Counted from the first letter of the stretch, positions 3,430-64,000 are shown. The stretch: DNA of 64,000 bases from Chloroflexota bacterium (GCA_020349245.1 CP070764.1:4396372-4460371); one strand, 5' to 3'. Notes: generated from the sequence alone by a model not told the origin. Program-made: numbers and translations.

Positions 3430-3459
3430 TTGAAAACCAAATCTATTAATTCATCACAC

Positions 3460-30964: not shown

Positions 30965-31007
30965 AAATTAACTCCAGGAAAGATTTGATAAACACCTACA
31001 ACGTCGC

Positions 31008-32443: not shown

Positions 32444-32521
32444 TTCTACTTTGACCTAGATCGCCCACTTGGTAGGTTTCTATACAGTTGGAATTGACAG
32501 AAACCCTTGCTGGCTTCGGGA

Positions 32522-34486: not shown

Positions 34487-34501
34487 ATCACCGATAATTT
34501 T

Positions 34502-35720: not shown

Positions 35721-35761
35721 AAATGTACTCCAATAATTTTCCCGGTTTTTCTTTCTGAAAT

Positions 35762-36271
35762 TTACCGGCGCCGTAGTTCGTCTTCAATCCTGGCAACATA
35801 CTCATCTCCCGGCTCTTCAGCGGGCTGACTTTCTTGTGCGAGGATTGGGGAGGCTTGTCTCCAAGATTTCAGGGCACGGTAGAGGATATAAATACCAGCG
35901 ATGAGGACCAAGGGGGGGATGATGTAAACGAGCCAATTCAGACCTCTGGCTGGAGGCGCGGCAAGCACACGATCACCGTATTGGTTTACAAAATAGGTCT
36001 TGATCTGGTCTTCAGTCCATCCCTCAGCTAGCTTTTCGCGAATCAATTCACGCCATTGGGCGCAGGCCTGGGTAGGACAAACGTCCAATGGAATGTTCTC
36101 ACATACCGGGCAGTAAAGTTGTTTTGCTACTGCGTTAACCTCATCATCAGTTGGTCCACTGGCAGGCACTTCCTGGGCAAAAACTGTGCTCACTGATGCG
36201 AGGGAGGCTACTATCGCGATGAGGACAAGCAGGAAAACGAAAATGGGAACTGAACGACTGTTGGGTTTCAT
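35762..36271 (-). CDS. ccmH: cytochrome c-type biogenesis protein CcmH
   Basis: Signal peptide, LYCPVCEN (LRCxxC-type) motif, and a conserved ...QYGDRVLAAPP segment followed by a TM helix. Confidence 0.88.
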   Translation of the reverse strand: MKPNSRSVPIFVFLLVLIAIVASLASVSTVFAQEVPASGPTDDEVNAVAKQLYCPVCENIPLDVCPTQACAQWRELIREKLAEGWTEDQIKTYFVNQYGDRVLAAPPARGLNWLVYIIPPLVLIAGIYILYRALKSWRQASPILAQESQPAEEPGDEYVARIEDELRRR

Positions 36272-42836: not shown

Positions 42837-42885
42837 CTTGACTATCATATATAATATTGGGGTAATTCCCAAGTGGAGTTATTTT

Positions 42886-44595: not shown

Positions 44596-44704
44596 ATCAT
44601 ATAAATGAATCAGGATTAATCTTGAAGATATTATAAAAGCCTTATAATATTTTGATGATCAGTGCGTGAGTTCGACGAGTTGGTATACGCCTAAGGAGAT
44701 AAAT

Positions 44705-45190
44705 ATGGAAGAAGAGAAAGACCAACTTAGCCGACGGAACTTTCTGGCGATTGCGACCGGAGCCATTGGAGGATTGATCGGAATTGTGATGGCTATCCCC
44801 GCAGTGGCTTATGTCGTCGGTCCTGCATTACAACGCAGGACAGCAGAAAACTGGGTCCGGCTCGGTCCAACTTCAAAAGTTGAGCTTGGAATCCCCACCC
44901 TTTTCAAAACCATCATAGAAAGTCAAACTGGTTGGATCGTTGCTGAGGAAGAAATCTCAGTTTATGTGTTGACTGAAGATGGGCGGGAATATATTGCCCT
45001 CTCAAACATCTGCACTCACCTCGGTTGCCGGGTTCGTTGGATTACCGACCAGGGACAATATTTCTGTCCTTGTCACAACGCAGCCTTCGATAAAACCGGG
45101 GAAGTCGTAGCAGGACCTCCGCCAAGTCCGCTCGATCGCTACGAGACCAAGGTTGAGGAAGATCAATTGTATATCCTGTTGGGAGGTTGA
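44705..45190 (+). CDS. qcrA: Rieske [2Fe-2S] subunit of a cytochrome bc-type complex, Tat signal
   Basis: SRRNFLAIATGAIGG twin-arginine/TM region, plus CTHLGC and CPCHNAAF cluster boxes. The RBS aaggag at 44693 precedes the ATG at 44705. Confidence 0.9.
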   Translation: MEEEKDQLSRRNFLAIATGAIGGLIGIVMAIPAVAYVVGPALQRRTAENWVRLGPTSKVELGIPTLFKTIIESQTGWIVAEEEISVYVLTEDGREYIALSNICTHLGCRVRWITDQGQYFCPCHNAAFDKTGEVVAGPPPSPLDRYETKVEEDQLYILLGG

Positions 45191-45191
45191 G

Positions 45192-45851
45192 ATGAGTGCT
45201 GGAATTGGTAATTGGCTTGATGAACGCATCGGTTGGCGCAAGGTCTGGGATGCCATTTTTCTGCGCAAGATCCCCAAGGTAAATTGGTTTTACACCCTGG
45301 GCAGCGCGACCCTCTTCGTGGCAATTCTGCAGGGGGTGACAGGTATTTTACTGACCATTTATTATGTCCCCACTCCGGACCACGCCTATGACAGCGTCCA
45401 GTTTATTACTACCCAGGTTGCCGGCGGCTGGTTTGTCCGCGGCGTCCATCACTGGGGGGCCAGCGCCATGGTGCTGCTCTCAGTACTGCACATGCTGCGA
45501 GTCATCCTTTACGGGGCATACAAATTCCCGCGTGAGGTGACGTGGTTCACGGGAGTAGGGCTGTTGCTGGTTGTGATGGGGTTTGGATTTACCGGTTACC
45601 TTCTACCCTGGGATCAGAAAGCGTATTGGGCGACTACGGTTGGGACCCGCATCGCGGGGGTAGCTCCTTTCATTGGTGAACCGATCCTGCGCATCATGCG
45701 CGGTGGGGAGGAGCTGTCCGCAGTTACCTTGGCGCGATTCTTTGGCACCCACGTCTGGGTCTTGCCGACAATCCTTTTGCTGCTGCTCGGAATCCATATG
45801 TACCTAGTGATCCGCCTCGGTATCAGCGCGGTACCAAAGAGGGAGGAGTAG
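45192..45851 (+). CDS. qcrB: cytochrome b6-type subunit (N-terminal four-helix half of cytochrome b)
   Basis: Haem-ligand helices (FVRGVHHWGASAMV..LHMLR; FFGTHVWVLP), TGYLLPWDQKAYWAT, 219 aa. The ATG at 45192 lies 1 nt after the Rieske stop. Confidence 0.9.
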   Translation: MSAGIGNWLDERIGWRKVWDAIFLRKIPKVNWFYTLGSATLFVAILQGVTGILLTIYYVPTPDHAYDSVQFITTQVAGGWFVRGVHHWGASAMVLLSVLHMLRVILYGAYKFPREVTWFTGVGLLLVVMGFGFTGYLLPWDQKAYWATTVGTRIAGVAPFIGEPILRIMRGGEELSAVTLARFFGTHVWVLPTILLLLLGIHMYLVIRLGISAVPKREE

Positions 45852-45854
45852 AAC

Positions 45855-47978
45855 ATGAAAGAGAAAGAGCGAAAGGAGTATCTCGAGAAGTACAATAAAG
45901 AGAAGGAGAAAGGAGTTCCCTTTTTCCCAGATATCCTCTTTAAAGACGCGGTTGTCTCCCTGGTGATATTTATCGCCCTGGTGGCTCTGGCATACTTTGT
46001 TGGTGCACCTCTGGAACCACGCGCCGATCCGGCAGACACCAGTTACACGCCGCGTCCAGAGTGGTATTTCTTATTCCTGTTCCAGCTGCTGAAATACTTC
46101 CCCGGATCCTTGGAAGTGATTGGCGTTGTTATCATCCCCACCTTGGCGATCATCCTTTTGATCGTCCTTCCATTTATCGATCGTTCAGCCAAACGGCATT
46201 TTATGCGCCGACCAGTGATCCTGGGATTAGTAGGATTGAGTACAGCTGGGATTTTACTGCTCACCTACCAATCCTACCGGGAGATCCCCCCACCCCTGGA
46301 AATTGTCGGAGGTGACCTGACAGCGCTCCTGTACACGGAGAACTGCGCTCCTTGTCACGGACCTTCGCTAACCGTACCGCAAGGTGTCAACTTACACGAG
46401 ATTATCGCCCAGGGGCGCCATGAGGATATGCCCGCCTGGAGTGGAGATCTCACGTCGGATGAAATTGATGCTCTGGCAGGCTTTATTATTTCGCCAGGAG
46501 GCAGCCAGCTGTTCACTGAGAATTGCAGCGAATGTCATGATGTGGCTGATCTGGTCGCCAGCGATCCGATAACCTTAAGGGAGTCTATCCGGCTCGGCAC
46601 GGAATTTGGATCCCATGCAGAGGCGGAGGTTCCGGATTGGACGACAACTATCAACCCCGAAGACCAGACAAAGCTGCTCAATTTCCTGGTCGCTCCTGAT
46701 GGACAACGCTTGTTTGCCACCAATTGTGCCCCCTGCCACGGTCAATCAGTTGCCTATGCTGGAGGCGAGGAAGAATTATTGGAAACGATCAGCCAAGGTG
46801 GAATGCACCTGGATATGCCCCCCTGGCGGGATATGCTGGACGATTCCGAATTGGATATTCTCGCTCGCTATGTGGTCAATCCATCGAATACACCGGAAGG
46901 GGTGGAGCTTTTTCAAACCAATTGTGCAAGTTGCCATGGTGAACGAATTCCCTCCGCTGAAGATGTAGAAGTGGCCCGGCAGATCATCGCTGAGGGCGGG
47001 GGTCACGAAACCATGCCAGTGTGGGGGGAAGTCCTCACCCCTGAACAGCTGGATGCCCTGGTTAACTTTACCGTGGCAGCTGCATCGGGTACCTCCGTTG
47101 AAGTTGGCCAGGAACTCTATGTTCAAAATTGTGCCCCCTGTCATGGAGAATTCGGTGAAGGTGGTCCTAACCCCTCCCGGGCAGGCGATATCATCTTCCC
47201 GATCAGCACCGCAGACTACCTCAAGACCAGGGATGATTTCACCTTGCGCTCCGTCATCGCTCAAGGTCAGCCTAATTTCGGCATGTCTCCTTTTGGCAGC
47301 GCTTTTGGAGGTCCTTTGGAAGAGGAGAACATCGATGCAATCGTGGCATATATTCGATCCTGGGAAGCCAATCCTCCAGTCGAATTGCCACCTGAAGTTG
47401 TTATTGATCTGGGTCAACAGGAAACCGTCACCCTGGACACGAAACAAATTTATGACCAGCTTTGCTCACAATGTCATGGGATTAATGGGGAAGGTGGTGT
47501 CGGACCATCGTTTGAAAACGCGCAATTTCAAGCTACCCGAACCGACACCCAGCTATTTAATGCCATCAATATCGGTCACGAAGCGACTTCCATGATCGGT
47601 TGGGGTGAAGTTTTGAGTGCTGAGCAGATCCAGCAGATCGTTCAGCTTATCCGCGAATTTCGAACTTCTCCAGGTGTCAGTCAACCGCCAACTGGTGGGG
47701 TATCATTTTCTTCCGATGTGATGCCCTTATTTGAGGCGAAGTGCGCTGCGTGCCATGGGAATTTTGGTGGTTGGGATGCCAGTACCTATACTACGGTTCT
47801 GGGAACAGGGAATAACGCTCCCGTGATTATCCCCGGTGACCCAGATAATAGCCTGTTGGCGCAGAAAATGGTTGGCACGCAATCGATTGGCAATATCATG
47901 CCGCCAGCGGGTTTGTTACCAGATGATGAGGTTCAGCTTATCCTGGATTGGATAGCAGAAGGAGCACTCGATAATTAA
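45855..47978 (+). CDS. qcrC: cytochrome b subunit IV fused to seven c-type cytochrome domains (QcrC-like, heptahaem)
   Basis: The N-terminus carries the Qo-site PEWY motif (RPEWYFLFLFQLLK) and 3 TM helices. Then CAPCH, CSECH, CAPCH, CASCH, CAPCH, CSQCH, CAACH; the last sits in a PSCyt1-like module. Confidence 0.88.
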   Translation: MKEKERKEYLEKYNKEKEKGVPFFPDILFKDAVVSLVIFIALVALAYFVGAPLEPRADPADTSYTPRPEWYFLFLFQLLKYFPGSLEVIGVVIIPTLAIILLIVLPFIDRSAKRHFMRRPVILGLVGLSTAGILLLTYQSYREIPPPLEIVGGDLTALLYTENCAPCHGPSLTVPQGVNLHEIIAQGRHEDMPAWSGDLTSDEIDALAGFIISPGGSQLFTENCSECHDVADLVASDPITLRESIRLGTEFGSHAEAEVPDWTTTINPEDQTKLLNFLVAPDGQRLFATNCAPCHGQSVAYAGGEEELLETISQGGMHLDMPPWRDMLDDSELDILARYVVNPSNTPEGVELFQTNCASCHGERIPSAEDVEVARQIIAEGGGHETMPVWGEVLTPEQLDALVNFTVAAASGTSVEVGQELYVQNCAPCHGEFGEGGPNPSRAGDIIFPISTADYLKTRDDFTLRSVIAQGQPNFGMSPFGSAFGGPLEEENIDAIVAYIRSWEANPPVELPPEVVIDLGQQETVTLDTKQIYDQLCSQCHGINGEGGVGPSFENAQFQATRTDTQLFNAINIGHEATSMIGWGEVLSAEQIQQIVQLIREFRTSPGVSQPPTGGVSFSSDVMPLFEAKCAACHGNFGGWDASTYTTVLGTGNNAPVIIPGDPDNSLLAQKMVGTQSIGNIMPPAGLLPDDEVQLILDWIAEGALDN

Positions 47979-50847: not shown

Positions 50848-52194
50848 ATGTTTAAAAAATTCATGCTTATTACGGGACTATTGTTGTTTGCCACCATCGT
50901 TTTGGTGGGGTGTGCTGGATCAGAAGGTGCTGAAGGCCCTCCTGGCCCTCAGGGTCCTGCTGGACCAGCTGGCCCTGCAGGTCCACCAGGATCTGGGGGA
51001 ACAGAGCTGACTGAAGATCAGCTTGCTGCGTTAGAAACGGCAGGTAACCTAGGTGGGATCCAATTCCCTGGTTTGGATGAGGTCCGCAGAGGTTGTCCAG
51101 CCTGTCATGTCCTTGTAAATGAGGAGACTGGACAATACACCTTGCCATATGAAGCTCATGAGAGGGCAGAAGCGCGCGGAAAAGAGCATCCAGAAGTCGC
51201 CCCCGATGGTACCTCGCTCGCCGCAACCGAGGATGTAAAGGTGACCACCTGCCTGCAGTGTCATGGGGCAGGAACCGGAGACCGTGCTGGTAAAGGAGTT
51301 ATCGCGCCGTTATCCCTGCGGGATATCGTCCATCCCGCTCATATGTACAGCCAGTGGTTTAAGCTGCACTACGGTGGCAACTGCTTTACCTGCCATAATG
51401 TGGATGGTGAAGGGAATTGGGAGCTTCTCACCGAGAAAGTTGAGGTGAATGAGAAAGGTGTCCCAGATCCTGAAGCGCTGCCAATCCCAGGTGCTGTTCC
51501 CATTGGGGAAGGGGCTACATCAAGCGCACTGTCCGGTTCAGTAGCTGCTGGCGGCCGGTTGTACGACAAATGGTGGACCGAAGCTGGTGTGGATGAGCCC
51601 AGCGGGGATCAGCCTGTGTGGGCAACCCAAACCACAAACACACGCAGCGGTGGGGATACCTGGCGCTGTAAAGAATGTCATGGATGGGATTACATGGGTG
51701 CTGCGGGTGCCTATGGTTCTGGATCTCACTTCACCGGTTTCCCGGGCGTATTCGATGTCCAATCGGAATCCGCTGAGGCGCTTGTGGCAATTCTGGATGG
51801 CAGTGCAAATCCAGATCACGACTTTTCTGCCATGGGAGAAGAAGCTCTCAACAACCTGGTGACATTCCTCAAAACGGGTTTGATTGATATGTCCACTCTG
51901 GTGGATGCCGAGACAAAAGCACCCGTGGGTGGCGATGCCGCGAATGGCGAGGCACTTTATGCTGCCTGTGCCGGCTGTCATGGTGAGGATGGACGAGCAG
52001 TCAACTTCGGTGATGATGAAGAACCGGAATATGTAGCAACAATCGCACTGGACAATCCCTGGGAATTCTTACATAAGGTGAGAGCGGGACAACCTGGCAC
52101 AGCCATGCCCGCCTCCTTGGATCTAGGATGGAGTACAGGTGAATTGCTCGATTTATTAGCTTTCGCCCAAACCTTGCCTGTTGAAGCACCCTAA
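50848..52194 (+). CDS. pentahaem c-type cytochrome lipoprotein with collagen-like stalk
   Basis: Lipobox LVGC, 10 G-X-Y triplets, then CPACH, CLQCH, CFTCH, CKECH, CAGCH. Confidence 0.88.
   Translation: MFKKFMLITGLLLFATIVLVGCAGSEGAEGPPGPQGPAGPAGPAGPPGSGGTELTEDQLAALETAGNLGGIQFPGLDEVRRGCPACHVLVNEETGQYTLPYEAHERAEARGKEHPEVAPDGTSLAATEDVKVTTCLQCHGAGTGDRAGKGVIAPLSLRDIVHPAHMYSQWFKLHYGGNCFTCHNVDGEGNWELLTEKVEVNEKGVPDPEALPIPGAVPIGEGATSSALSGSVAAGGRLYDKWWTEAGVDEPSGDQPVWATQTTNTRSGGDTWRCKECHGWDYMGAAGAYGSGSHFTGFPGVFDVQSESAEALVAILDGSANPDHDFSAMGEEALNNLVTFLKTGLIDMSTLVDAETKAPVGGDAANGEALYAACAGCHGEDGRAVNFGDDEEPEYVATIALDNPWEFLHKVRAGQPGTAMPASLDLGWSTGELLDLLAFAQTLPVEAP
50917..51006 (+). repeat. collagen-like (Gly-X-Y)10 coding repeat
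   Basis: [30 protein letters not shown], starting 2 residues after the lipobox Cys. Confidence 0.9.
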
Positions 52195-52248: not shown

Positions 52249-52280
52249 AATGCAATATATGCTTGCCTTATGAGAATAGT

Positions 52281-52796
52281 ATGAAACGTTTTTGGTGGAT
52301 CGGACTCTTTGTTTTTGTGGTCATTGTCATCGTGATCGGAGCAATTCTGACCCGTATGCAGGTTTATGCCGCGCCTGAACAACCGATCGAGTACAGCCAC
52401 CGGATTCACGTGGAGAAAGACATCCAATGTTTATATTGTCATCCGGGTGCTGTTCAATCAGCAGTCGCTGGTATACCTTCCGTGCAAAAATGCATGGGTT
52501 GCCACAATGTAATTAAAGCCGATAGTCCAGAAATTCAGCAGGTTGCCAGTTATTATGATGAAGGCAAACCGATCCCTTGGATAAAGGTCAATCGTCAACC
52601 AGATTTCATCTATTTCAGTCACCTGCCTCACCTCGGCGCAAGTCTCAATTGTGAAACTTGCCATGGTGAGGTTGGCCAGATGGATGTAACGAAACAATTC
52701 GTCAAGATGGATATGGGTTGGTGTTTGGATTGCCATTTGAACCAACCAGCAGAAAAAGTAGGCCGTCTTGCGGACTGCCTGACTTGTCACAAGTGA
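52281..52796 (+). CDS. actA: alternative complex III subunit ActA (membrane-anchored pentahaem cytochrome c)
   Basis: N-terminal TM plus CLYCH, CMGCH, CETCH, CLDCH, CLTCH in 171 aa. It is the first gene of the act cluster. The track start at 52263 is TTG; the ATG is at 52281. Confidence 0.85.
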   Translation: MKRFWWIGLFVFVVIVIVIGAILTRMQVYAAPEQPIEYSHRIHVEKDIQCLYCHPGAVQSAVAGIPSVQKCMGCHNVIKADSPEIQQVASYYDEGKPIPWIKVNRQPDFIYFSHLPHLGASLNCETCHGEVGQMDVTKQFVKMDMGWCLDCHLNQPAEKVGRLADCLTCHK

Positions 52797-52804
52797 AAAA
52801 ATTT

Positions 52805-55018
52805 ATGACCAAGAAGATATCTCGGCGTGATTTTCTGAAGCTAAGCAGCGGAGCTATGGTGGTTACAGGTATTGCACCCAGCATCCGCAAGCTGGTTCTC
52901 GAACCCTATGTACAACCTCCGGAGGAGATTTTACCCGGGCAGGACACTTGGTATGCTAGTACCTGTCGCCAATGTCCAGCGGGATGTGGAATCATTGTGA
53001 GGGTGATCAATGGGCGAGCGAAGAAAATTGAAGGCAATCCCCTGCATCCGCTCAACCAAGGAAAATTGTGTGCTCGGGGCCAGGCTGGGCTACAAGTACT
53101 CTATCACCCGGATCGTCTTAAGAATGCAGTTCGCCAAGTTGGTGGGCGGGGCTCCCTGCAATATGAACCCCTCTACTGGTCAGAAGCTCTAGACATATTG
53201 ACAGAAAAACTCGAATCCTTGAGCACGCCGAATCGGGTTGCATTCTTGGGTGGTTTATTACCCTCTCATTTATACATATTGAGCACACGTTTACTCAACT
53301 CAATTGGGGCGGAGTCGCCGATTATTTATGACTTGCACTCTGCTCTTGAGGGTCGGTATTCGACCTTGAAATTATCTGAAACCTTATTTGGTTCTCCAGA
53401 ATTACCAATTTATGATCTGGCGAATGCTGAGGTGATCTACTCTTTTGGGGCAAACTTCCTGGAAACCTGGATGTCACCGGTCTCACAAAGTCATGCATAT
53501 GGGAATATGCGCCAAGGTCAATTTGGAGGTCGGGGTTTTCTTGTCCAATTTGAACCACGCTTATCAGCCACGGCGGCTTCTGCAGATGAATGGGTCCCAT
53601 TAAAACCAGGGGTAGAAGGATATGTTGCACTGGCGATTGGACGCATCATTGTAGAAGAACGGCTTGGAAATGTAGGCAGTCACCGACCCTATGCCGGTTT
53701 GTATCAAAACATTGATGTCCGTGAGATGGCGGCAGCGAGTCAGGTTCCGGCCGAAGATCTCAACCGGCTGGCACGAATTTTTGCGAATGCTGACCAGGCA
53801 ATGGCCATTCCTGGGGGCGGGTTATCTGGACAATCGAACGGGCAAGCAAGCATGCTGGCCATTCAAACCTTGAATTTACTGGTTGCTCAATTTGGAAAGG
53901 TGGGAGGAATATTTTTATCCCAACCTGGTCCAACAGCCGCTTATCGCCAAAATCCAAAAGTTGATTCGTTTGGGAATGTAACCGATTTAGTGGATCGCAT
54001 GCAAGCTGGTGAGATCGACCTGCTCCTGGTCCATGGAACGAATCCGGTCTTCGAATTACCCGCCTCGACAGGATTCGCAGAGGCAATTGCCCGGGTTCCA
54101 TATGTCATTTCTTTCAGTTCATTTGTGGATGAAACCACTATGCATGCTGACCTGGTCTTACCGGATCATACCTACCTGGAATCTTGGGGCCACGAAGTCC
54201 CCTCGCCAGGGTCGGGAAAACCCACAGTGAGCAGTCAGCAACCGGTAGTGCGTCCACTGTATGATACCCGCTCATCGGCGGATGTTTTCCTGGCAGTAGC
54301 GAAACGTTTGGGAGGTGAGGCAGCAAAGGCACTACCCTGGACTGATGAGGTTGCTTTCCTGCAAGAATTAGCTGATGAGCTCCATGGCTCCAGCCTTGGG
54401 GCATACGATGCAACGACCTCCAATAGCTTCTGGGCTCTCTGGCGTCAGTACGGTGGATGGTGGACGGAGAAAGAGATTCCTCGTGAACCCGATCTTTCCG
54501 CAATTCCTCAAGATCCACTGCCTATAACCGAACCGGTTTACGATGGAGAAGAGCAAGACTATCCATTCCATCTGCATCTATATCCATCGGTAACGCTGTC
54601 GGATGGGCGGGGTGCGCATTTACCCTGGTTGCAAGGAGCGCCGGATCCGATGACCACCGCAACTTGGGGGACCTGGGTGGAACTCAATCCTGAGACTGCC
54701 AGTAAATTAGGTGTCGATGACAATGATATTGTGCGGGTGATCTCTCCCTATGGAGAATTAGAAGCGCCAGTTGTTGTCTATCCAGGAATTCGTCCTGATG
54801 TGGTTGCAATCCCGGTTGGGCAAGGCCACCAGCAATATGGTCGCTTTGCCCAAAAGCGGGGTAGCAACCCGGTCGCTCTGGTATCTGCGATCACAGATTC
54901 CGAATCTGGCTCCCTTGCCTGGGGAGCTACCAGGGTGCAGATAGAAGCGACTGGACGAAAGGAAATCCTACCAAGATTAGAAAGTTTAGCTGGGGAAGGG
55001 CGTGAATCCATTGGATAA
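52805..55018 (+). CDS. actB: ACIII subunit ActB1 (molybdopterin-oxidoreductase-like, Tat signal), encoded separately from ActB2
   Basis: SRRDFLKLSSGA Tat motif, N-terminal CRQCPAGCG...KLCARG Cys cluster, 737 aa CISM-family-like protein. The start is the ATG at 52805; the track start at 52718 overlaps actA. Confidence 0.8.
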   Translation: MTKKISRRDFLKLSSGAMVVTGIAPSIRKLVLEPYVQPPEEILPGQDTWYASTCRQCPAGCGIIVRVINGRAKKIEGNPLHPLNQGKLCARGQAGLQVLYHPDRLKNAVRQVGGRGSLQYEPLYWSEALDILTEKLESLSTPNRVAFLGGLLPSHLYILSTRLLNSIGAESPIIYDLHSALEGRYSTLKLSETLFGSPELPIYDLANAEVIYSFGANFLETWMSPVSQSHAYGNMRQGQFGGRGFLVQFEPRLSATAASADEWVPLKPGVEGYVALAIGRIIVEERLGNVGSHRPYAGLYQNIDVREMAAASQVPAEDLNRLARIFANADQAMAIPGGGLSGQSNGQASMLAIQTLNLLVAQFGKVGGIFLSQPGPTAAYRQNPKVDSFGNVTDLVDRMQAGEIDLLLVHGTNPVFELPASTGFAEAIARVPYVISFSSFVDETTMHADLVLPDHTYLESWGHEVPSPGSGKPTVSSQQPVVRPLYDTRSSADVFLAVAKRLGGEAAKALPWTDEVAFLQELADELHGSSLGAYDATTSNSFWALWRQYGGWWTEKEIPREPDLSAIPQDPLPITEPVYDGEEQDYPFHLHLYPSVTLSDGRGAHLPWLQGAPDPMTTATWGTWVELNPETASKLGVDDNDIVRVISPYGELEAPVVVYPGIRPDVVAIPVGQGHQQYGRFAQKRGSNPVALVSAITDSESGSLAWGATRVQIEATGRKEILPRLESLAGEGRESIG

Positions 55019-55715
55019 TACAGAACCTCGTTGGGCAATGATCGTTGATTTAGACAGGTGTACTGGATGCCAGGCATGTGTGGTTGCCTGCCAGGCGGAA
55101 AACAATGTACCAACCGTAGGTGAGGCTGAAACGGCAAAAGGCCGCTGGCTCCATTGGATCCATATTGAAAGATATTGGGAAGGCGAGTACCCGAATATCA
55201 AGGCACGATTTATGCCCGTGATGTGTCAACAATGCGGAGAGGCGCCTTGTGAGCCAGTTTGTCCGGTCTTTGCCACCTATCATACGCCGGAAGGATTGAA
55301 TGCCCAGATTTATAACCGCTGTATTGGGACTCGTTTCTGCGGCAGCGCTTGCCCCTACAAAGTGCGAACCTACAACTGGTTTCGCCCAGAGTTTCCGGAG
55401 CCATTGAATGAGCAGCTCAACCCTGATGTATCTGTTCGCTCGCGTGGCTTGATTGAAAAGTGTACATTTTGCATCCAGCGCATACGGCGGGTAGAAATTG
55501 AGGCTCATGCGCAAGGACGTGAACCCGCTGATGGTGAAATCCAACCTGCCTGTGTACAAACCTGTGCTCCCGGTGCATTGGTCTTCGGAGATTTGAATGA
55601 TCCCGAGAGCCGGGTAAGTCAGTTATCTACGAGTCATCGATCCTTCAAACTCCTCGGCGAGCTGGGCACCAGCCCCGGGGTCATCTACCTTAAAGGAGGC
55701 GAAACGAATGTCTGA
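55002..55715 (+). CDS. actB: ACIII subunit ActB2 (4Fe-4S ferredoxin-type, NrfC/PsrB-like)
   Basis: RWAMIVDLDRCTGCQACVVAC, CQQCGEAPCEPVC, CIGTRFCGSACP and CTFCIQR...CVQTC cluster motifs. The GTG start at 55002 overlaps the ActB1 end by 17 nt in another frame. Confidence 0.85.
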   Translation: MNPLDNTEPRWAMIVDLDRCTGCQACVVACQAENNVPTVGEAETAKGRWLHWIHIERYWEGEYPNIKARFMPVMCQQCGEAPCEPVCPVFATYHTPEGLNAQIYNRCIGTRFCGSACPYKVRTYNWFRPEFPEPLNEQLNPDVSVRSRGLIEKCTFCIQRIRRVEIEAHAQGREPADGEIQPACVQTCAPGALVFGDLNDPESRVSQLSTSHRSFKLLGELGTSPGVIYLKGGETNV

Positions 55716-57129
55716 ATCAGAGGTGGTAGCATACCCTGAGGAAAGCAGTTCTGCGGAATTCGAAGATCGCCTGCTCCTCTCTGAACGAACAAGCGAAGAA
55801 ATCAATCGTGCTGTCCTAGAACCGATGTTCAGATCAAGTTGGCGCTTCTGGTTGCTGGTGGCCTTTTTAAGCGTTTTAGTTCTCTGGGGAGTGTTTGCCT
55901 GGGGGTACTTAATCTATTGGGGAATGGGAACCGCGGGCATCAATCGACCTGTTTATTGGGGATTTTTCATTGCTACTTTCGTATTTTGGGTTGGGATCAG
56001 TCACGCCGGAACAATGATCTCCGCGGTTTTACGGCTATTGAAGGCGGATTGGCGCCGGCCAATTACCCGGGGTGCAGAGGCCATGACAGCCTTTGCCCTG
56101 ATGATGGCTGGCTTATTCCCTTTCATTCACTTAGGAAGGGTTTGGAAATTTTATTGGATGATTCCCTATCCCAATAATCGTTTTATGTGGCCGAATTTCC
56201 AATCTCCCTTGATGTGGGATATGGTCGCCATCTTTACTTACCTGATTGGCTCGAGTCTCTATCTCTACCTGGCACTGATCCCAGATCTGGCCATGGCTCG
56301 TGACCACACTTCAAAATGGCGTCAGAAGCTCTACAGAATTTTATCCCTCGGATGGCGAGGTACGGAGGCGGAGTGGCATAAGCTCCAGCGGGCATTAAGC
56401 ATTTTTTCGGTGGCCATTATTCCAATCTTCCTCTCAGTCCACTCGATTGTCTCTTGGGATTTTGCCGTCACCATTCAACCTCGCTGGCACAGCACGATTT
56501 TCGCGCCCTACTTCGTGGTTGGCGCGATTTATTCGGGATTGGCTGCACTGGCTGCCATCCTTGTGATTGTTCGCAAGGGCATGCAGCTTCAGGAATTTCT
56601 ACGGGCTGAGCACTTTAATGCTCTCGGAAAATTAGTCATGGTGGCTGGCATGGCCTGGACCTATTTCTGGTTTGCAGGCTTTATCGTGGAATGGTATGGA
56701 AATGAACCGGTGATTCGTGAATTGATCCATGAAGAAGTATCCGGCGATCTCGCGCCACTCTTTTACCTGCAGATGTCTGCCAATTTGATCCCGATTGTCA
56801 TGCTGGTGTTTAAAAAAGTCCGCGTGACACCCTGGTTATTACTCCTCGCCGCAGTAATGGTCAACATTGGTATGTTTACAGAGCGTGTACTAATCGTTGT
56901 CGGCAGTTTGCAGCGCAACTTTATGCCTTTCAACTGGGGGGATTACAGTCCATCCTGGGTTGAAATAAGCATCGTTGTGATGACATTTGCTGGCTTTGCG
57001 CTTTTGTATACGCTTTTTTCACGTGTTTTCCCCTATGTCCCGGTTTGGGAGATCAAAGAAGGGCGTTTGCGTTATACGATGCGCCGGATTGGCCGCTTAT
57101 TGGTGCCAACCGCAGCTGAGATTGAGTAA
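55708..57129 (+). CDS. actC: ACIII subunit ActC (NrfD/PsrC-like quinol-interacting membrane subunit)
   Basis: 473-aa polytopic NrfD-family protein directly after the Fe-S subunit. Confidence 0.85.
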   Translation: MSESEVVAYPEESSSAEFEDRLLLSERTSEEINRAVLEPMFRSSWRFWLLVAFLSVLVLWGVFAWGYLIYWGMGTAGINRPVYWGFFIATFVFWVGISHAGTMISAVLRLLKADWRRPITRGAEAMTAFALMMAGLFPFIHLGRVWKFYWMIPYPNNRFMWPNFQSPLMWDMVAIFTYLIGSSLYLYLALIPDLAMARDHTSKWRQKLYRILSLGWRGTEAEWHKLQRALSIFSVAIIPIFLSVHSIVSWDFAVTIQPRWHSTIFAPYFVVGAIYSGLAALAAILVIVRKGMQLQEFLRAEHFNALGKLVMVAGMAWTYFWFAGFIVEWYGNEPVIRELIHEEVSGDLAPLFYLQMSANLIPIVMLVFKKVRVTPWLLLLAAVMVNIGMFTERVLIVVGSLQRNFMPFNWGDYSPSWVEISIVVMTFAGFALLYTLFSRVFPYVPVWEIKEGRLRYTMRRIGRLLVPTAAEIE

Positions 57130-57245
57130 TTGTGCATTTTACGGCAGGAGACTACATTGGTAGAAATTCCTGGTATTGCTTGCCAGATGATATGATGAGA
57201 CGAGTATTCAAGAAAAAAATATAACGAAGCGATAGATGAAAATCA

Positions 57246-57773
57246 ATGAGTGAAAAAACAATCTCCCTGGTCGCTCTATTTCAAGAGAGTACTGATACCG
57301 CCAAGGCCATTGATGACCTCCACAATTTAGGGATCCCGGATGAAAATATGGTGGTCATGTCAGATGTACCCTATCCCGAAAAAGCCTTGGGCAGAACAGG
57401 TGAGTGGCTCACCCTGCCATATATCGTGCTTGCTGGAGCTGTGGTGGGCCTGTTGATTGGATTATTTTTGTCTGCGATCACCCCTCATCTCTACCGCCTG
57501 GATGTAGGCGGTCACCCACCGGTTGGATTTCCTCCCGCAGCAGTGATCACTTTTGTTTTTACCATGATGGCGATCATCGTGTCCACATTTCTCGGTGTGC
57601 TCTGGGAGATGGATTTCCCCAGCTTTGGTCCTGTACCGTACAACAAAGCTGTCACTGATGGCAAATTAGGTGTGCTTGTTGAATTCCCAACTGAATTGAA
57701 GGATAGCGTCAACCGGGTGTTCAAGGAAAACCAGGCTGATTTTATCGGGGAACCGGAGATGATATCGCTATGA
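57246..57773 (+). CDS. actD: ACIII subunit ActD (DUF3341-type membrane protein)
   Basis: A soluble N-terminal part (LVALFQESTDTAKAIDDL) followed by two TM helices, at the position expected for ActD after ActC. Confidence 0.7.
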   Translation: MSEKTISLVALFQESTDTAKAIDDLHNLGIPDENMVVMSDVPYPEKALGRTGEWLTLPYIVLAGAVVGLLIGLFLSAITPHLYRLDVGGHPPVGFPPAAVITFVFTMMAIIVSTFLGVLWEMDFPSFGPVPYNKAVTDGKLGVLVEFPTELKDSVNRVFKENQADFIGEPEMISL

Positions 57774-58276
57774 ACTCTCGCTTACAGCGTGGATTGATCT
57801 TCATCCTCGTCCTTACGATACCTTTCTTAATTAGTCTCTTGTTTACTTACGAGGTCTTGAAAATCCCGTTTACCACGGATATGCAGTATCAAGCCTCCAT
57901 AAATTATCAAGAGGGTCCTCGCCTATTGCCACCGGAAGATGCGGTTCCGATACAAGGCCTTGCTATCATCCCCGATGAATTTCCGGAAAATCCAATTACA
58001 GCGGATGATGTCTCCTTGCAGCGGGGAAAAATCCTCTTCGATATTCATTGCCAGATTTGTCACGGAGTAAATGGACATGGAGATGGTCCTTTGGCGCAAT
58101 ATTTTGAGCGTACCCCGGAAAATCTAACCGGCCCACAAATATCGGCAGAATTCGATGGGGCTGTCTACTTAACCATCCGAAATGGATTTGGCCAGATGCC
58201 AGCATTATCTGAAAATCTGACGCCGCATGAAACCTGGGATGTGGTGAATTATCTTCACACGCTACCCGTGAGGTGA
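57770..58276 (+). CDS. actE: ACIII subunit ActE (monohaem cytochrome c)
   Basis: N-terminal TM/signal, a single CQICHG, and a Met ligand region GFGQMPA. Confidence 0.8.
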   Translation: MNSRLQRGLIFILVLTIPFLISLLFTYEVLKIPFTTDMQYQASINYQEGPRLLPPEDAVPIQGLAIIPDEFPENPITADDVSLQRGKILFDIHCQICHGVNGHGDGPLAQYFERTPENLTGPQISAEFDGAVYLTIRNGFGQMPALSENLTPHETWDVVNYLHTLPVR

Positions 58277-58285
58277 AAGGTAAAG

Positions 58286-59332
58286 ATGATAACCAAAATT
58301 GCATTCATGTCTTCAGTCGTTATCTTGTTACTTGCTGCTTGTTCTGCACCGCAGAGTCTACCTTCGGGTCCTACCCCGATCCCAACCCTCATCCCTGCCA
58401 CAGATCTGGGCAGTCCTCTGACTGAAACGGCACAACCTTCTTATCCCATTCAGAGTTACCCAGCCCGGTTGCCCTCAGCAGAGCTCGGTTTTCCACTTTA
58501 CCAGGCTCACTGTGCCAGCTGTCATGGGGATGATGGGAATGGGGTTGTCCCAGGAGCCCGAAATTTTGGTGATTTGGATTATATGCGCGGAGAAACTCCG
58601 GCCTTTTTCTATACCACGGTTGCTGAGGGTCGCGGTGAGATGCAGGGATTTCGTGATGAACTGACTTCAGATGAGCTTTGGGATGTTGTTTTTTACGTGT
58701 GGCGGTTTTCTACCGATACCGAAACACTTAACCTTGGACAAAATATCTATGAGGAGAATTGCCAGGTTTGCCATGGGCTCGATGGAACGGGAGCAGTGCT
58801 TGGCGCTGCTGATTTCTCTGATTTGCGGGTAGTTGATGACCAGGCTCCTCGAGATTTCTACCTCGTAACGACACAAGGGAAAGGTTCAATGCCGGCCTGG
58901 CAGGGGCGCTTATCCCAGGATGAACGCTGGGCAGTGATTGATTATCTGCGCACCTTCTCGTACGACCCGAGTCTCCCGGGGGAAGTTGTAGAACAACCGC
59001 CCCCAACGACTGTTCCAGAGGAGAGTGGCTGTGATCCGAATTATCTTACCCAAACCAATCCCTTTGATTGGAACGATTCGGCTGCCAGCATCGCCGGTCA
59101 AGTAATTTATGACCAGGCGTGTGGCATGTGTCACGGGGTTGATGGTTCCGGAGGTCTTCCGGGTACCCCTGACTATACTGATGCCGCAGTTGCACAGGAT
59201 CTTCGCTCCAATGGTGGTGAAAAACTATGTGTAGTCGCCGAGGGGAAAGAATCAATGCCCGGTTGGAAAGAGACCCTTACAGAGCAACAGATGTGGGAAG
59301 TGCTCACTTACCTGTATTCATTTGGAAAATAG
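58286..59332 (+). CDS. trihaem class-I-type cytochrome c lipoprotein
   Basis: Lipobox LLAAC, a Pro-rich linker, and three cyt c units: CASCHG, CQVCHG, CGMCHG. Confidence 0.88.
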   Translation: MITKIAFMSSVVILLLAACSAPQSLPSGPTPIPTLIPATDLGSPLTETAQPSYPIQSYPARLPSAELGFPLYQAHCASCHGDDGNGVVPGARNFGDLDYMRGETPAFFYTTVAEGRGEMQGFRDELTSDELWDVVFYVWRFSTDTETLNLGQNIYEENCQVCHGLDGTGAVLGAADFSDLRVVDDQAPRDFYLVTTQGKGSMPAWQGRLSQDERWAVIDYLRTFSYDPSLPGEVVEQPPPTTVPEESGCDPNYLTQTNPFDWNDSAASIAGQVIYDQACGMCHGVDGSGGLPGTPDYTDAAVAQDLRSNGGEKLCVVAEGKESMPGWKETLTEQQMWEVLTYLYSFGK

Positions 59333-59680: not shown

Positions 59681-59698
59681 AGTGTATCCGGATACACT
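59681..59698. promoter_or_regulatory. perfect 18-bp palindrome agtgtatccggatacact upstream of hexahaem gene A
   Basis: Self-complementary over 18 nt. It ends 3 nt before the aaggag RBS of the ATG at 59712. An identical copy sits at 61228-61245. Confidence 0.6.
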
Positions 59699-59711
59699 CA
59701 AGGAGAATGCA

Positions 59712-60773
59712 ATGAAACATAAACATCTTTTCATCGGGCTATTACTGCTGATCGCTGCCTTGGCTCTGGCAGCCTGTGCAGGAACGCCCGGCCCTGAAGG
59801 ACCGCAAGGTCCTCCTGGGCCAGAAGGCCCCCCTGGTCCAGCTGGTCCAGCTGGTCCTGCCGGTGCTGCCGGTACCGCAGGGGAGGCTGGCGCAGCTGCA
59901 GAGATGGGCGATCTGTCCTGCACTGAATGCCATAATGATACAACCTTGATCGTCGGCAAGAAAACAGCCTGGAGTGAGTCCCTGCATGGTTCTGGTGAAG
60001 CCTACGTGCGCGGGACCAATGCCAGCTGTGCAGGTTGTCACTCAGGGGGTGGTTTTAGCGCCAGGATTGCAGCTGGGCTGAATCCAGATGAGGTTGCGGA
60101 AGGGGATCCCAACCCAACCCGCCAGGACTGCCGAACCTGTCACCAGATTCACGTCACCTATACCGGCGAGGATTGGGCTTTGGAGTCCACCGATCCGGTG
60201 GATTTCTTCGCGGTCGAAGGCGCGACTTATGATGGCGGTGAAGGTAACCTGTGTGCCAATTGCCACCAACCTCGGCGCGTTTTCCCGGGTGCAGTCGATG
60301 GTGTGGTCACCGGTATCTCTGAGCACTGGGGCCCGCACCATGGCGGACAAGCTCCGATGTTGCTCGGTGTCGCTGGTGCGGGTGATGTTGAAGGCAGCCC
60401 CAGCTCGCATTACAACATGGTGGAAGACACCTGCGTGGCCTGCCATATGGGTCCAGATCGAGTTCATACCTATGAACCAAATGTTGCCGTGTGCCAGGAG
60501 TGCCATTCAGGAGCTGAAAACTTTGATATCAACGGCGTGCAAACCGAGGTCCAGGCTCAGCTAGATGAGCTTGGGGACGCTCTGGTCGCAGCGGGTGTAC
60601 TCAGTGAAAATGGTCCTGAAGGACACCCGACTGTCGAGGAAGCTCCCGAGGGCTTGGCCATCGCTCTTTGGAACTGGATCTACATCGCCCATGAGGACAA
60701 GAGCTTGGGTGTCCACAATTCAGCCTACACCAAAGCTCTGCTCGAGGAGGCTTTCGCCGCCTTAGAGCAGTAA
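59712..60773 (+). CDS. hexahaem c-type cytochrome lipoprotein with collagen-like stalk (paralog A)
   Basis: aaggag [25 protein letters not shown] lipobox, 13 G-X-Y triplets, then CTECH, CAGCH, CRTCH, CANCH, CVACH, CQECH. The C-terminus [17 protein letters not shown] helix motif is like NrfA/HAO-type multihaem proteins. The track start at 59682 is a GTG inside the palindrome. Confidence 0.88.
   Translation: MKHKHLFIGLLLLIAALALAACAGTPGPEGPQGPPGPEGPPGPAGPAGPAGAAGTAGEAGAAAEMGDLSCTECHNDTTLIVGKKTAWSESLHGSGEAYVRGTNASCAGCHSGGGFSARIAAGLNPDEVAEGDPNPTRQDCRTCHQIHVTYTGEDWALESTDPVDFFAVEGATYDGGEGNLCANCHQPRRVFPGAVDGVVTGISEHWGPHHGGQAPMLLGVAGAGDVEGSPSSHYNMVEDTCVACHMGPDRVHTYEPNVAVCQECHSGAENFDINGVQTEVQAQLDELGDALVAAGVLSENGPEGHPTVEEAPEGLAIALWNWIYIAHEDKSLGVHNSAYTKALLEEAFAALEQ
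59781..59897 (+). repeat. collagen-like (Gly-X-Y)13 coding repeat
   Basis: [39 protein letters not shown], including a perfect ggtccagct x2 tandem. Confidence 0.9.
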
Positions 60774-60826
60774 AATATGTGGGTAATTTTGCATAAATAA
60801 CCGCATATTTTTCAATTAAATTGCTG

Positions 60827-60867
60827 CTGTGTGCGTCGCCAGATACGCGGCGCACACAGTCTTTTTT
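60827..60867 (+). terminator. rho-independent terminator after paralog A
   Basis: A 13-bp stem (ctgtgtgcgtcgc / gcggcgcacacag, one G-U pair), then c and a run of 6 T. Confidence 0.8.
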
Positions 60868-61227
60868 AACATTCAAAAGCAATGTCTTTCCAGGATATGC
60901 GAATTATCCAGGACATAGCAAGGCTTGGTTTCTACTTGGTGCTGGGGTGAGAATCCAAGCTGATCGAATCCCCAAAAATGAAATATTTTCCAACTCATGT
61001 TCTCCCAAAATACTGGGAAGCCATACATTTGTCATATAGTGTAATGTGACATAATTCACTAATATCCTTCTCATAATTGGGGTATAAATCATATGCAAAA
61101 TTACCCAATTGAAGCCTGGCAGCACGGGAGGTATGCTGGGAATATTCGTTTATAGATACAACGAGAGAGGAGGACGCCTATCCCTGTAAAGTATTGAAGA
61201 AGGAACGCCCTAAAAAGACTTTATTTT

Positions 61228-61245
61228 AGTGTATCCGGATACACT
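61228..61245. promoter_or_regulatory. second copy of the 18-bp palindrome agtgtatccggatacact
   Basis: Identical sequence and identical spacing to the RBS/ATG of paralog B. Confidence 0.6.
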
Positions 61246-61258
61246 CAAGGAGAATGCA

Positions 61259-62326
61259 ATGAAACATAAACATCTTTTCATCGGGCTATTACTGCTGATC
61301 GCTGCCTTGGCTCTGGCAGCCTGTGCAGGAACGTCCGGACCTGAAGGACCGCAAGGTCCTCCCGGCCCAGAAGGTCCTCCCGGACCAGCTGGACCTGCAG
61401 GGCCTGCTGGCCCTGCCGGTACCGCAGGGGAGGCTGGCGCAGCTGCAGAGATGGGTGATCTCACCTGCACTGAATGTCACAATGACTCGGCAGTTATGGC
61501 TGGCATTTCAAATTCATGGTCAGAATCGTTACATGGCAGTGGGGAAGCCACGGCCTATGCAGGCAGCAGAACTTCCTGCACAGGCTGCCATTCTGGCGGT
61601 GGCTTCAGTGCGGCTGTTGAAGCCGGGGTAAGTCCAGTAGGTGAACAGGAGTCAGCGGCTGCGAACCCAAGCCGCCCAGACTGCCGGGCCTGCCACCAGG
61701 TCCACGTTACCTATACCGGTGAAGACTGGGCTCTGGAAACCACAGAAGCAGTGCCGATGGCTGCCTTCGAAGGCGAGACCTTTGACGGTGGAAAGGGCAA
61801 CCTGTGCGCCAACTGCCACCAGGCTCGCCGCGGCGTTGATGAACCCAATGCTGATGGCGATGTTGAAGTAACCAGCACCCACTGGGGACCCCATCACGGT
61901 CCTCAGAGTGCCATGCTGCTTGGCCTGGCTGGCGCGGGTGAAGTTGAAGGCGCTCCCAGCGCACACGCCACCATGGTGGAAGACACCTGTGTAGCCTGCC
62001 ATATGGGTGATGGCAAGGTTCATACCTTTGAGCCAAATGTAGCTGCCTGTCAGGAATGCCACTCCGGTATGGAAACCTTCGATGACACCGGTTTGCAGAC
62101 CGAAGTCCAGGAAAAACTGGATCAACTGGAAGAGGCACTCGTCGCCCGTGGTTGGTTGGACGAAGAAGGTCATCCAGCAGTAGAAGCCATCCCCGCACCT
62201 GAAGCTTATGCTCTGTGGAACTGGATCTACATCGCCCACGAGGATAAAAGCTTAGGTGTCCACAACCCCACCTACACCAGGGCTCTACTAGATGAGTCGC
62301 TGGCTACATTAGGACTTGGGGAGTAA
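61259..62326 (+). CDS. hexahaem c-type cytochrome lipoprotein with collagen-like stalk (paralog B)
   Basis: Same signal peptide and lipobox as paralog A, 13 G-X-Y triplets, then CTECH, CTGCH, CRACH, CANCH, CVACH, CQECH. The track start at 61229 is upstream, inside the palindrome. Confidence 0.88.
61328..61444 (+). repeat. collagen-like (Gly-X-Y)13 coding repeat
   Basis: [39 protein letters not shown]. Confidence 0.9.
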
Positions 62327-62555: not shown

Positions 62556-64000
62556 ATGAAATATAAATATTTTATTGTTGGTTTCCTAGTGCTGTTAGCT
62601 GCCCTCGTTCTGGCAGCGTGCGGTACTGCGGGGCCAACGGCAGAAGCCACGCCATGCCCTGTACCGGAACCCTGCCCGGAATGCCCGCAGGTCAGCTGCC
62701 CGGATTGTCCTGAGTGCCCGGAACCAGTGGTAGCTGTAGTGCCTTTCGAACAGGAGTGGGCTAATTCACCCCACAACGCTGCCGATGCAGAGGCTTTCCG
62801 TCACTGGGATGAAGATGATCCGGCGCAGATTCCCGAATCTTGTGCCAAGTGTCACAGCACACCCGGACATTTGGACTTCCTGGGTGAGGATGGCAGTGAA
62901 GCCGGCGTGGTGGATGCTCCCGCGCCGATCGGGACAACCATTGAATGCGTCGCTTGTCACAATGACACCAACCTGGTCAAAGATAGCGTGGTCTTTCCCT
63001 CGGGGGTGGAGTTAACTGACCTGGGTGACCAGGCCCGCTGCATGGAGTGCCACCAGGGACGATCCTCCAAGTTTACCGTGGATGAAGCTATTGCTGAGGC
63101 AGTCGGCGAAAATCTCGACATGGTCAGCGAGGACCTGGGCTTCATCAATATCCATTACTATGCTGCAGCAGCCACGCGCTATGGTACGGAGGTGATGGGC
63201 GGGTACGAGTATGATGGTCTGGCTTACGACCCGCGCTTTGACCACGTGGAGGGCTACCAATCCTGCATCAACTGCCACGACATGCACACGCTGGAACTTA
63301 AGGTTGAGGAATGCGGTGGCTGCCACGCGGGCGTTTCAACCCTGGAAGATGTGGAACAGATCCGTTTCGCTGGCTCGCTGAATGACTATGATGGTGATGG
63401 TGATGTTGAAGAACCTATTAAGGATGAACTCACCGGGTTGCAAGAATTGCTCTACCTGAACATGCAGGCTTATGCCAGTGAGGTAGCTGGTTCTTCACTG
63501 GTCTATGATGCCGCCAGCTATCCGTATTTCTTCGATGAGGCTGGTGAAAGATATGCTGCCTGGACCGGTCGCCTGGTGAAAGCAGCTTACAATTACCAGG
63601 TCTCTCTCAAAGATCCGGGTGCCTTCGCCCATGGTGGCAAGTACATCATCCAGCTGCTCTATGACTCGATCGCGGACCTGAATGGTCAAGTAGGAACGCC
63701 GGTTGATATGAGTATCCTACACCGCGAGGATCCTGGGCATTTTGCAGCTGCTGGTGAACCCTGGCGCCACTGGGACGAGGACGACCCCAAGGAAGTCCCG
63801 GCCAGCTGCTCGAAGTGCCATTCAGCCGAGGGACTGCCGACCTTTATCACCACCGGCGGAGATACCTACCCGCAACCGGTGGCCAGCGGCTTGAACTGCG
63901 CTACCTGCCACGACGACCTGTCGACTTTCACTCGTTACGTTTCGGAGGAAGTGACCTTTCCCAGCGGGGCTACCGTATCGTTTGAAAATGTGGATGCGAA
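62556..64000 (+). CDS. large multihaem c-type cytochrome lipoprotein with Cys-Pro-rich linker, 5' part (at least 7 CXXCH in window; continues past window end)
   Basis: Not in the ORF track because it has no stop. My own translation from the ATG at 62556 (RBS aaggag) has no stop through 64000. It reads MKYKYFIVGFLVLLAALVLAACGTAGPTAEATPCPVPEPCPECPQVSCPDCPECPEP..., then CAKCH, CVACH, CMECH, CINCH, CGGCH, CSKCH, CATCH. Confidence 0.85.
   Translation, partial: MKYKYFIVGFLVLLAALVLAACGTAGPTAEATPCPVPEPCPECPQVSCPDCPECPEPVVAVVPFEQEWANSPHNAADAEAFRHWDEDDPAQIPESCAKCHSTPGHLDFLGEDGSEAGVVDAPAPIGTTIECVACHNDTNLVKDSVVFPSGVELTDLGDQARCMECHQGRSSKFTVDEAIAEAVGENLDMVSEDLGFINIHYYAAAATRYGTEVMGGYEYDGLAYDPRFDHVEGYQSCINCHDMHTLELKVEECGGCHAGVSTLEDVEQIRFAGSLNDYDGDGDVEEPIKDELTGLQELLYLNMQAYASEVAGSSLVYDAASYPYFFDEAGERYAAWTGRLVKAAYNYQVSLKDPGAFAHGGKYIIQLLYDSIADLNGQVGTPVDMSILHREDPGHFAAAGEPWRHWDEDDPKEVPASCSKCHSAEGLPTFITTGGDTYPQPVASGLNCATCHDDLSTFTRYVSEEVTFPSGATVSFENVDA

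Follow-up and report, generated by a model that had tools for sequence, protein, structure and literature searches.

We analysed a 64,000-nucleotide stretch of the Anaerolineales-type genome of a Chloroflexota bacterium (GCA_020349245.1 CP070764.1:4396372-4460371; hereafter the window, with positions counted from its first letter), in which four genes are predicted to encode lipid-anchored multihaem c-type cytochromes with a collagen-like module between the acylated cysteine and the haem domain. Two of these, the hexahaem proteins A and B, are tandem paralogs; the other two are an octahaem and a pentahaem protein (Table 1). All four display the lipoprotein signal pattern (basic n-region, hydrophobic h-region and lipobox [LVI][ASTVI][GAS]C at residues 18-25; judged by sequence pattern), and in each a single residue separates the lipobox Cys from the start of an uninterrupted Gly-X-Y run (LAAC followed by A-G in three genes, LVGC followed by A-G in the fourth). 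The haem domains contain 6 (A), 6 (B), 8 (octahaem) and 5 (pentahaem) CXXCH motifs.

Table 1. Positions of the collagen-stalked cytochrome genes and of neighbouring features in the window.
Feature	Position	Strand	Details and basis
Hexahaem lipoprotein cytochrome A	59712..60773	+	open reading frame and translation, Pfam, homologs, AlphaFold2 (AF2) model
A, signal peptide	59712-59777	+	lipobox Cys codon 59775-59777
A, Gly-X-Y stalk	59781-59897	+	13 triplets
A, nine-nucleotide tandem unit	59833-59857		2.8 perfect copies
A, haem domain	59898-60770	+	6 CXXCH
Hexahaem lipoprotein cytochrome B	61259..62326	+	tandem paralog of A; lipobox Cys codon 61322-61324
B, Gly-X-Y stalk	61328-61444	+	13 triplets
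Octahaem lipoprotein cytochrome	41513..42775	+	lipobox Cys codon 41582-41584
Octahaem protein, Gly-X-Y stalk	41588-41713	+	14 triplets
Pentahaem lipoprotein cytochrome with C-terminal class-I cytochrome c domain	50848..52194	+	lipobox Cys codon 50911-50913
Pentahaem protein, Gly-X-Y stalk	50917-51006	+	10 triplets; 11 counting the triplet with the lipobox Cys
Antisense open reading frame across stalk A	59663-59959	-	reads as G-P-x repeats
Antisense open reading frame across stalk B	61210-61470	-	reads as G-P-x repeats
Perfect 16-nt palindrome GTGTATCCGGATACAC	59682-59697	.	14 nt upstream of the A ATG
Identical palindrome copy	61229-61244	.	14 nt upstream of the B start codon
System I cytochrome c maturation: CcmA, CcmB, CcmC-like, thioredoxin-like, CcmF, and a class-I c-type cytochrome (two cytochrome c domains)	30266..38337	-	Pfam
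NapC/NirT-like membrane cytochrome, Rieske protein, cytochrome b, cytochrome b C-terminal part/multihaem c fusion	42838..47978	+	Pfam
Cytochrome b C-terminal (subunit IV-like) part fused to an extension	45855-47978		707 aa; five matched cytochrome c domains in the extension
Alternative complex III operon: ActA pentahaem, ActB molybdopterin-like and FeS, ActC NrfD-like, ActD, ActE monohaem	52263..58276	+	Pfam
Trihaem class-I lipoprotein cytochrome, Pro-rich non-G-X-Y linker	58286..59332	+	between alternative complex III and A
Decahaem-type lipoprotein cytochrome	62556..64000	+	cut by the window end; translation
Decahaem-type protein, linker after the lipobox	~62640-62720		Cys/Pro-rich TPCPVPEPCPECPQVSCPDCPECPEP, no G-X-Y

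A six-frame scan of the window for runs of at least five triplets recovered all four runs that a first-pass annotation of the sequence had placed here, with the same ends and triplet counts, and besides these only their antisense mirrors and one trivial five-triplet antisense run. The antisense reading frames across stalks A and B are a mirror effect of the GGN-CCN periodicity and no sign of real genes. The same annotation had put the first CXXCH 10-45 residues past the run, slightly more than the distances we measured (8, 8, 11 and about 33 residues for A, B, the octahaem and the pentahaem protein). Of the Pfam Collagen matches (PF01391) it had called for, those of A and B reach 28.8 and 30.1 bits and exceed the gathering score of 27.2, whereas those of the octahaem and pentahaem proteins, at 26.6 and 19.7 bits, fall below it; the short length of the runs limits the score. 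Cytochrome c7/c3 and MtrC-like models also match A. Since the run lies after the lipobox Cys, it is part of the mature protein and not of a cleaved signal peptide, which had been one of the annotation's concerns, although later cleavage between stalk and haem domain may occur. In one Anaerolineaceae homolog (locus L011, gene ~2525-3568; handles beginning with L or P denote homologous loci and proteins) the stalk is present with Gly in place of the lipobox Cys; this may reflect a sequencing error or mark a variant that lacks the lipid anchor.

The run is conserved well beyond the window. A homolog search with hexahaem A returned 2,526 matches, and among the best 120, which were inspected, an uninterrupted run of 7-23 triplets directly follows the lipobox Cys in all 111 full-length homologs; in the remaining nine the gene call is truncated at the N-terminus. 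When the haem domain served as the only query, a no-index search gave 1,126 clusters at 50% identity, and at least four triplets are present in 99 of the best 150 distant hexahaem representatives inspected (35-60% identity), down to 35% identity, one stalk-bearing distant cluster carrying the name Bacteroidota. The octahaem family behaves similarly, with a run of 4-21 triplets in 93 of 105 full-length homologs (at least eight triplets in all but one) and a hydrophobic N-terminal anchor in those without it. Further stalked cytochromes include a decahaem protein in L008 and octahaem proteins in L002. Lack of conservation in orthologs, which would have told against the first-pass proposal, is thus not what we see; the run is kept more widely than expected.

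Public gene calls, mostly from JGI, often begin at the first Met past the stalk, giving versions of 288-293 and 329-337 aa (P0064, P0070, P0284, P0404-P0408 and others). Because many automatic calls start downstream in this way, current annotation hides both the signal peptide and the stalk. Two of the distant loci have distinctive surroundings: in L084 a stalked relative (gene 6001-7113) lies directly downstream of feoAB (ferrous iron uptake), and in L082 a Bacteroidota-like stalked relative (gene 6001-6996) is followed by a 402-aa unannotated protein, a second cytochrome and a DoxX-family protein.

Comparison of the stalks shows which of their properties are kept. In a close set of 169 distinct stalks (1,799 triplets), Pro occupies the X position in 68% of triplets and Y is Ala, Gln, Glu or Pro; 147 of the 169 runs start one residue after the Cys, and the commonest run end lies 7 residues before the first CXXCH. 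In the distant set, X is Pro in 35% and Y is Asp in 31%, with GKD, GVD and GAD triplets, and the run stops 1-4 residues before the haem-binding Cys. This different composition (GKD, GVD) is that of the most distant, Bacteroidota-like relatives; GKD triplets resemble those of the triple-helical Scl2. With X and Y changing in this way, the sole constant is Gly at every third position, which is strict over ~2,500 triplets, and stalk length varies in whole triplets. A triple helix demands both a strict Gly period and whole-triplet changes of length, so this pattern argues for a collagen-type constraint and not for a generic tether. The collagen-like module is old, and purifying selection acts to keep its Gly period. 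Residues X and Y of the hexahaem stalks vary freely, even between orthologs inside 90%-identity clusters. The octahaem stalk and its homologs (P0281-P0399) share a nearly invariant mid-stalk core, GPEGPQGP(P), which may be a specific contact site or a site of helix nucleation.

As a control for this pattern we took a NitT/TauT-type substrate-binding lipoprotein of Anaerolineales, which is found near stalked loci and in the same taxa. None of its 114 lipobox-bearing homologs has even three Gly-X-Y triplets; their linkers are aperiodic, rich in P/A/T/S and 12-90 residues long. The module thus appears to be specific to these cytochromes and no generic lipoprotein tether. The same comparison bears on the idea that the runs are chance low complexity, or that they arose as a DNA-level repeat expansion without any role in the protein. 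The first-pass annotation had pointed to perfect 9-nt tandem repeats inside the runs, and such short arrays do exist (Table 1), as does an occasional one-triplet polymorphism in 90%-identity clusters. Its suggestion that stalk length may vary by slippage finds weak support in these one-triplet changes, but length is mostly fixed within the clusters. Stalk A alone uses nine distinct triplet types and all four Gly codons, as do the stalks at large for the codons, so that the runs are not a young repeat expansion. With the runs kept down to 35% haem-domain identity, the differences between paralogs mostly synonymous (see below) and the control family devoid of such runs, an origin by chance or by repeat expansion is effectively refuted.

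A scan of species-representative genomes yielded 235 relatives, in which the N-terminal module differs between lineages. Anaerolineales and Acidimicrobiia/Actinomycetota have a lipobox with a Gly-X-Y stalk; Thermoleophilia have an SLH-like wall-binding domain; relatives in metagenome-assembled genomes labelled Planctomycetota have a plain signal peptide leading directly into the haem domain; and Krumholzibacteriota and Eisenbacteria have a lipobox with a short 'CDR..ITR' linker. SLH-bearing relatives of the Thermoleophilia type occur in L030 and L036 and include P0126, P0127, P0139, P0142 and P0143. Because the module varies by lineage, the stalk is best described as one of several interchangeable devices for anchoring or positioning a single type of head. 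That a wall-binding domain takes its place in Thermoleophilia, and that the octahaem core is nearly fixed as though for a sequence-specific contact, could also mean that the tract serves for binding, as a ligand or an adhesion site towards a wall polymer, the S-layer, a sheath or a partner protein, and not as a structural stalk; the collagen-like proteins Scl1 and Lcl do act as adhesins. We regard this as very improbable, given the free variation of X and Y in the hexahaem family and the position of the tract, which is always directly at the lipid anchor, where a spacer would be expected.

We then asked what the stalks carry. A search of the PDB with A (phmmer) found no cytochrome match at E < 0.3, the only matches being collagen peptides over the stalk, and no curated NCBIfam family model reached its cut-off on these cytochromes. 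An AF2 run on an alignment of 142 sequences gave a haem-domain model with a predicted local distance difference test (pLDDT) score of 95.9; an earlier run on 28 sequences, with a pLDDT of 55, was discarded. Across the 142 sequences the six CXXCH motifs are invariant or nearly so, and further His residues are conserved. The best Foldseek matches of the model in the PDB are OcwA (6i5b, E 1.8e-5, TMq 0.52-0.57) and then OmhA (6qvm, E 9e-4), with TMq of 0.50-0.57 over the two, while NrfA, ONR and MccA are weak matches. The modelled haem domain therefore resembles those of cytochromes that export electrons at the cell surface. OcwA of Thermincola potens and OmhA of Carboxydothermus ferrireducens are Gram-positive cell-surface cytochromes of the NrfA/HAO/MccA superfamily, which has C-terminal oligomerisation helices (PMC9250108), and OcwA is the terminal reductase of extracellular electron transfer (PMC6703420, PMC9250108).

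The three C-terminal helices of OcwA and OmhA are shared by the model, and all these proteins come from organisms without an outer membrane; the invariant HWGPHHG motif of the stalked family recalls the His-His motifs over the five-coordinate haems of OcwA. HAO and MccA, from the same superfamily, are trimers. Identity to OcwA and OmhA is only 20-22%, with no match by sequence search, and there are six haems here against nine in OcwA and eleven in OmhA; with six haems and no sequence-level homology, the stalked cytochromes fall outside the OcwA/OmhA family proper. OcwA has a plain signal peptide and OmhA was deposited as an S-layer cytochrome, and we know of no lipobox or Gly-X-Y stalk in either, though their N-termini were not inspected.

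The tandem arrangement of A and B allows the stalks of two paralogs to be compared. Overall the proteins are 71% identical. In DNA, the 5' part, which comprises the ribosome-binding region, the signal peptide and the stalk, is 85-98% identical and the remainder 52-87%, mostly 55-75%. Of the 20 nucleotide differences in the linker, 17 fall at third codon positions and only three residues differ; in an independent pair in L008, 19 of 23 linker differences are at third positions and four residues change. Cys and CXXCH lie equally far apart in both members of five out of five tandem pairs (47/47 three times, 40/40 and 34/34), where the chance of equal linker length for random family members is 0.109, uncorrected for relatedness, in a family ranging from 20 to 58 residues. 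Both paralog types occur across the hexahaem family. The matched linkers are suggestive of co-assembly or of a shared requirement for height, and A and B, whose stalks are equal in length and nearly equal in sequence, may co-assemble.

It is unlikely, in our estimate, that the tandem paralogs form mixed trimers through these matched stalks. A second copy was found at 6 of 81 loci (a seventh pair, L085, was found later), and most loci are thus single-copy; in L085, the two linkers differ at 10 of 48 residues. As L001, L008 and L085 may be related lineages, the five pairs do not count as independent. The similarity of paralog stalks can moreover stem from gene conversion at the 5' end, which alone could explain the match: the SLH modules of the two L030 paralogs, also in tandem, share 89% DNA identity, so that 5' homogenisation is not specific to stalks. 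Both the divergent L085 pair and this alternative origin of the similarity count against a triple helix as well as against its mixed form. Recent gene conversion as the sole source of the A/B stalk identity is ruled out by the 17 synonymous-site differences; older conversion followed by purifying selection is possible. For trimers that mix cytochrome families we found no evidence, the linkers of two families measuring 47 and 54 residues in the window and the third having a 10-triplet stalk with a longer tail. The palindrome GTGTATCCGGATACAC upstream of each start codon (two matches found against 0.13 expected by chance) might serve as an operator site or fold into a leader hairpin.

The stalked genes lie among components of respiratory electron transfer. 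From left to right the gene order is: the cytochrome c maturation genes, the stalked octahaem gene, the NapC-like and bc-type genes, the stalked pentahaem gene, the alternative complex III (ACIII) operon, the trihaem gene, A, B and the decahaem-type gene. The bc-type complex adjoins the octahaem gene on its downstream side and includes the fusion protein of Table 1, while the ACIII operon lies directly upstream of the trihaem and hexahaem genes; annotations of ActD and of cytochromes are also precomputed in L001. The trihaem gene and its type of linker recur in L006, L008, L011, L017, L045 and L065. The decahaem-type protein has seven CXXCH motifs in the part within the window, and its homologs of 710-733 aa carry ten; its Cys/Pro-rich linker, of a type conserved in L013, L017, L029, L032 and L053, might form a disulfide-bonded or metal-binding rod. 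Chloroflexota lack genes for outer-membrane biogenesis and have multilayered envelopes (bioRxiv 10.1101/2025.08.19.671072).

Putting these results together, we assign a probability of roughly 55% to the reading that the collagen-like stalk forms a triple helix and positions OcwA-like haem domains in the envelope beside the ACIII and bc complexes. Three chains, joined by their lipid anchors in the membrane and perhaps by contacts between haem domains, would wind into a triple helix, the acyl anchors helping to nucleate it and the haem domains possibly contributing. N-terminal lipid tails strongly stabilise short collagen-model peptides, as in the peptide amphiphiles of Fields and Tirrell. The helix would be ~11 nm long here (39 residues at 0.286 nm) and 6-20 nm across close homologs, and would hold 18 haems in the hexahaem or 24 in the octahaem case at a constant distance from the cytoplasmic membrane, within the multilayered wall that surrounds a Chloroflexota cell without an outer membrane. 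Since haem 1 is bound 1-8 residues past the last triplet, a trimer would also bring three haems together where the stalk ends. So placed, the cytochromes would relay electrons between the ACIII and bc-type quinol oxidoreductases and partners further out, and it is plausible that the stalk spans a periplasm or sheath.

Several observations weigh against a triple helix, and most of them fit an extended, polyproline-II-like and protease-resistant tether for a monomeric or dimeric cytochrome. The residues common in the stalks (Pro, Ala, Gln and Glu) have a high polyproline-II propensity. The charge of the stalks is almost exclusively acidic, with 481 acidic and 8 basic residues in the close set, so that stabilising ion pairs would be missing and like charges would repel each other in a trimer. 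The runs of many distant relatives comprise only 4-8 triplets, which is short for a stable triple helix without hydroxylation, and no prolyl hydroxylase was seen in the 64-kb window, to which that search was confined. OcwA, the nearest solved relative, is a mixture of monomer and dimer with a small interface. A plain spacer can evidently do a similar job, since the trihaem and decahaem-type proteins of the same neighbourhood have Pro-rich or Cys/Pro-rich linkers without Gly-X-Y in that position. The Pro-Thr repeats of the Geobacter lipoprotein cytochrome PgcA give no collagen-like signal by circular dichroism (CD; PMC5732950). Stalks in Bacteroidota-type relatives, which have an outer membrane, speak against the monoderm part of the proposal in particular; a rationale of monoderm wall spanning alone is accordingly incomplete.

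Even so, we consider a monomeric spacer rather unlikely. It leaves unexplained why Gly is invariant at every third position over the ~2,500 triplets of two families, and why insertions and deletions respect whole triplets and the period is kept while X and Y change completely, when control lipoproteins of the same taxa make do with aperiodic linkers. As to the stability of a triple helix without hydroxyproline, the frequent Pro at X and Ala, Gln or Glu at Y are favourable residues, but ion pairs are absent, and the stalks of distant relatives are rich in GKD and GxD triplets. Returning to the triple helix, a broader form of the proposal can be put forward tentatively, at somewhat less than even odds: a lipid-anchored collagen triple helix may be a widespread and hitherto unrecognised prokaryotic device. 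Three chains acylated at their N-termini would start a short triple helix at the membrane surface, acting as a natural 'peptide amphiphile', and would yield homo- or heterotrimeric towers of 18-24 haems, with the three haem-1 groups gathered at the stalk tip and a height set by the genome. In Chloroflexota and Actinomycetota such towers would wire ACIII and bc complexes to the outer envelope, and Bacteroidota would have related versions of them.

How respiratory electrons pass across a thick, multilayered wall in bacteria without an outer membrane is poorly understood, and the Gram-positive cytochromes characterised to date are few (OcwA, OmhA). To this problem a conserved stalk of genome-encoded length would offer a simple structural solution, open to direct test. 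Should the triple helix prove real, these would be, as far as our searches show, the first collagen-like proteins to bear a redox head and also the first with a helix beginning at a lipid anchor. The roles of prokaryotic collagen would then extend beyond adhesion and spore surfaces, and the stalk would represent a natural scaffold for setting redox proteins at a fixed nanometre distance from a membrane or electrode.

The arrangement appears to combine two known kinds of protein, bacterial collagen-like proteins and tethered surface cytochromes, and we did not find it described: a full-text literature search returned no publication in which collagen-like sequences are connected with multihaem or c-type cytochromes. 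Precomputed Pfam hits do show the two features together, but the source records call the proteins 'hypothetical' or 'cytochrome c3 family'. Functional analogues exist among animal proteins, including collagens XIII and XVII, MARCO, SR-A, the collectins, C1q, ColQ-tailed acetylcholinesterase and CTHRC1. In these a membrane or matrix anchor and a short triple helix (11-25 triplets in ficolins, CTHRC1 and CTRPs) hold C-terminal heads as trimers at a set distance; they differ in being eukaryotic and stabilised by hydroxyproline, in their transmembrane helix or other anchor and in having no redox cofactors, and no evolutionary link to them is known. The nearest precedent for a lipoprotein cytochrome tethered by repeats is PgcA, a lipid-anchored extracellular trihaem cytochrome whose anchor and haem domains have repetitive Pro-rich stretches between them; its repeats, however, are of the form (P-T-x)n and lie between haem domains, they show no collagen-like structure by CD, and the protein is processed and released (PMC5732950).

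Among bacterial collagen-like proteins, streptococcal Scl1/Scl2, Bacillus BclA, Legionella Lcl and Burkholderia Bucl8 share with the stalked cytochromes an uninterrupted Gly-X-Y tract matching PF01391, Pro at the X position, GKD-type triplets and the 'lollipop' arrangement of stalk and globular head, and the NCBIfam models for Scl and Lcl match weakly over the stalks described here. Bucl8 is likewise reported to link its collagen-like tract with a trimeric machine of the envelope (PMC7682875). Cytochromes and lipoproteins do not feature in a review of prokaryotic collagen-like proteins (PMC8968730). The known bacterial collagens run to tens or hundreds of triplets, serve as adhesins, spore-surface or efflux proteins, and are anchored by LPXTG, by the exosporium basal layer or by a beta-barrel, whereas the stalks of the cytochromes have 4-23 triplets set right after an acylated Cys and carry a redox head.

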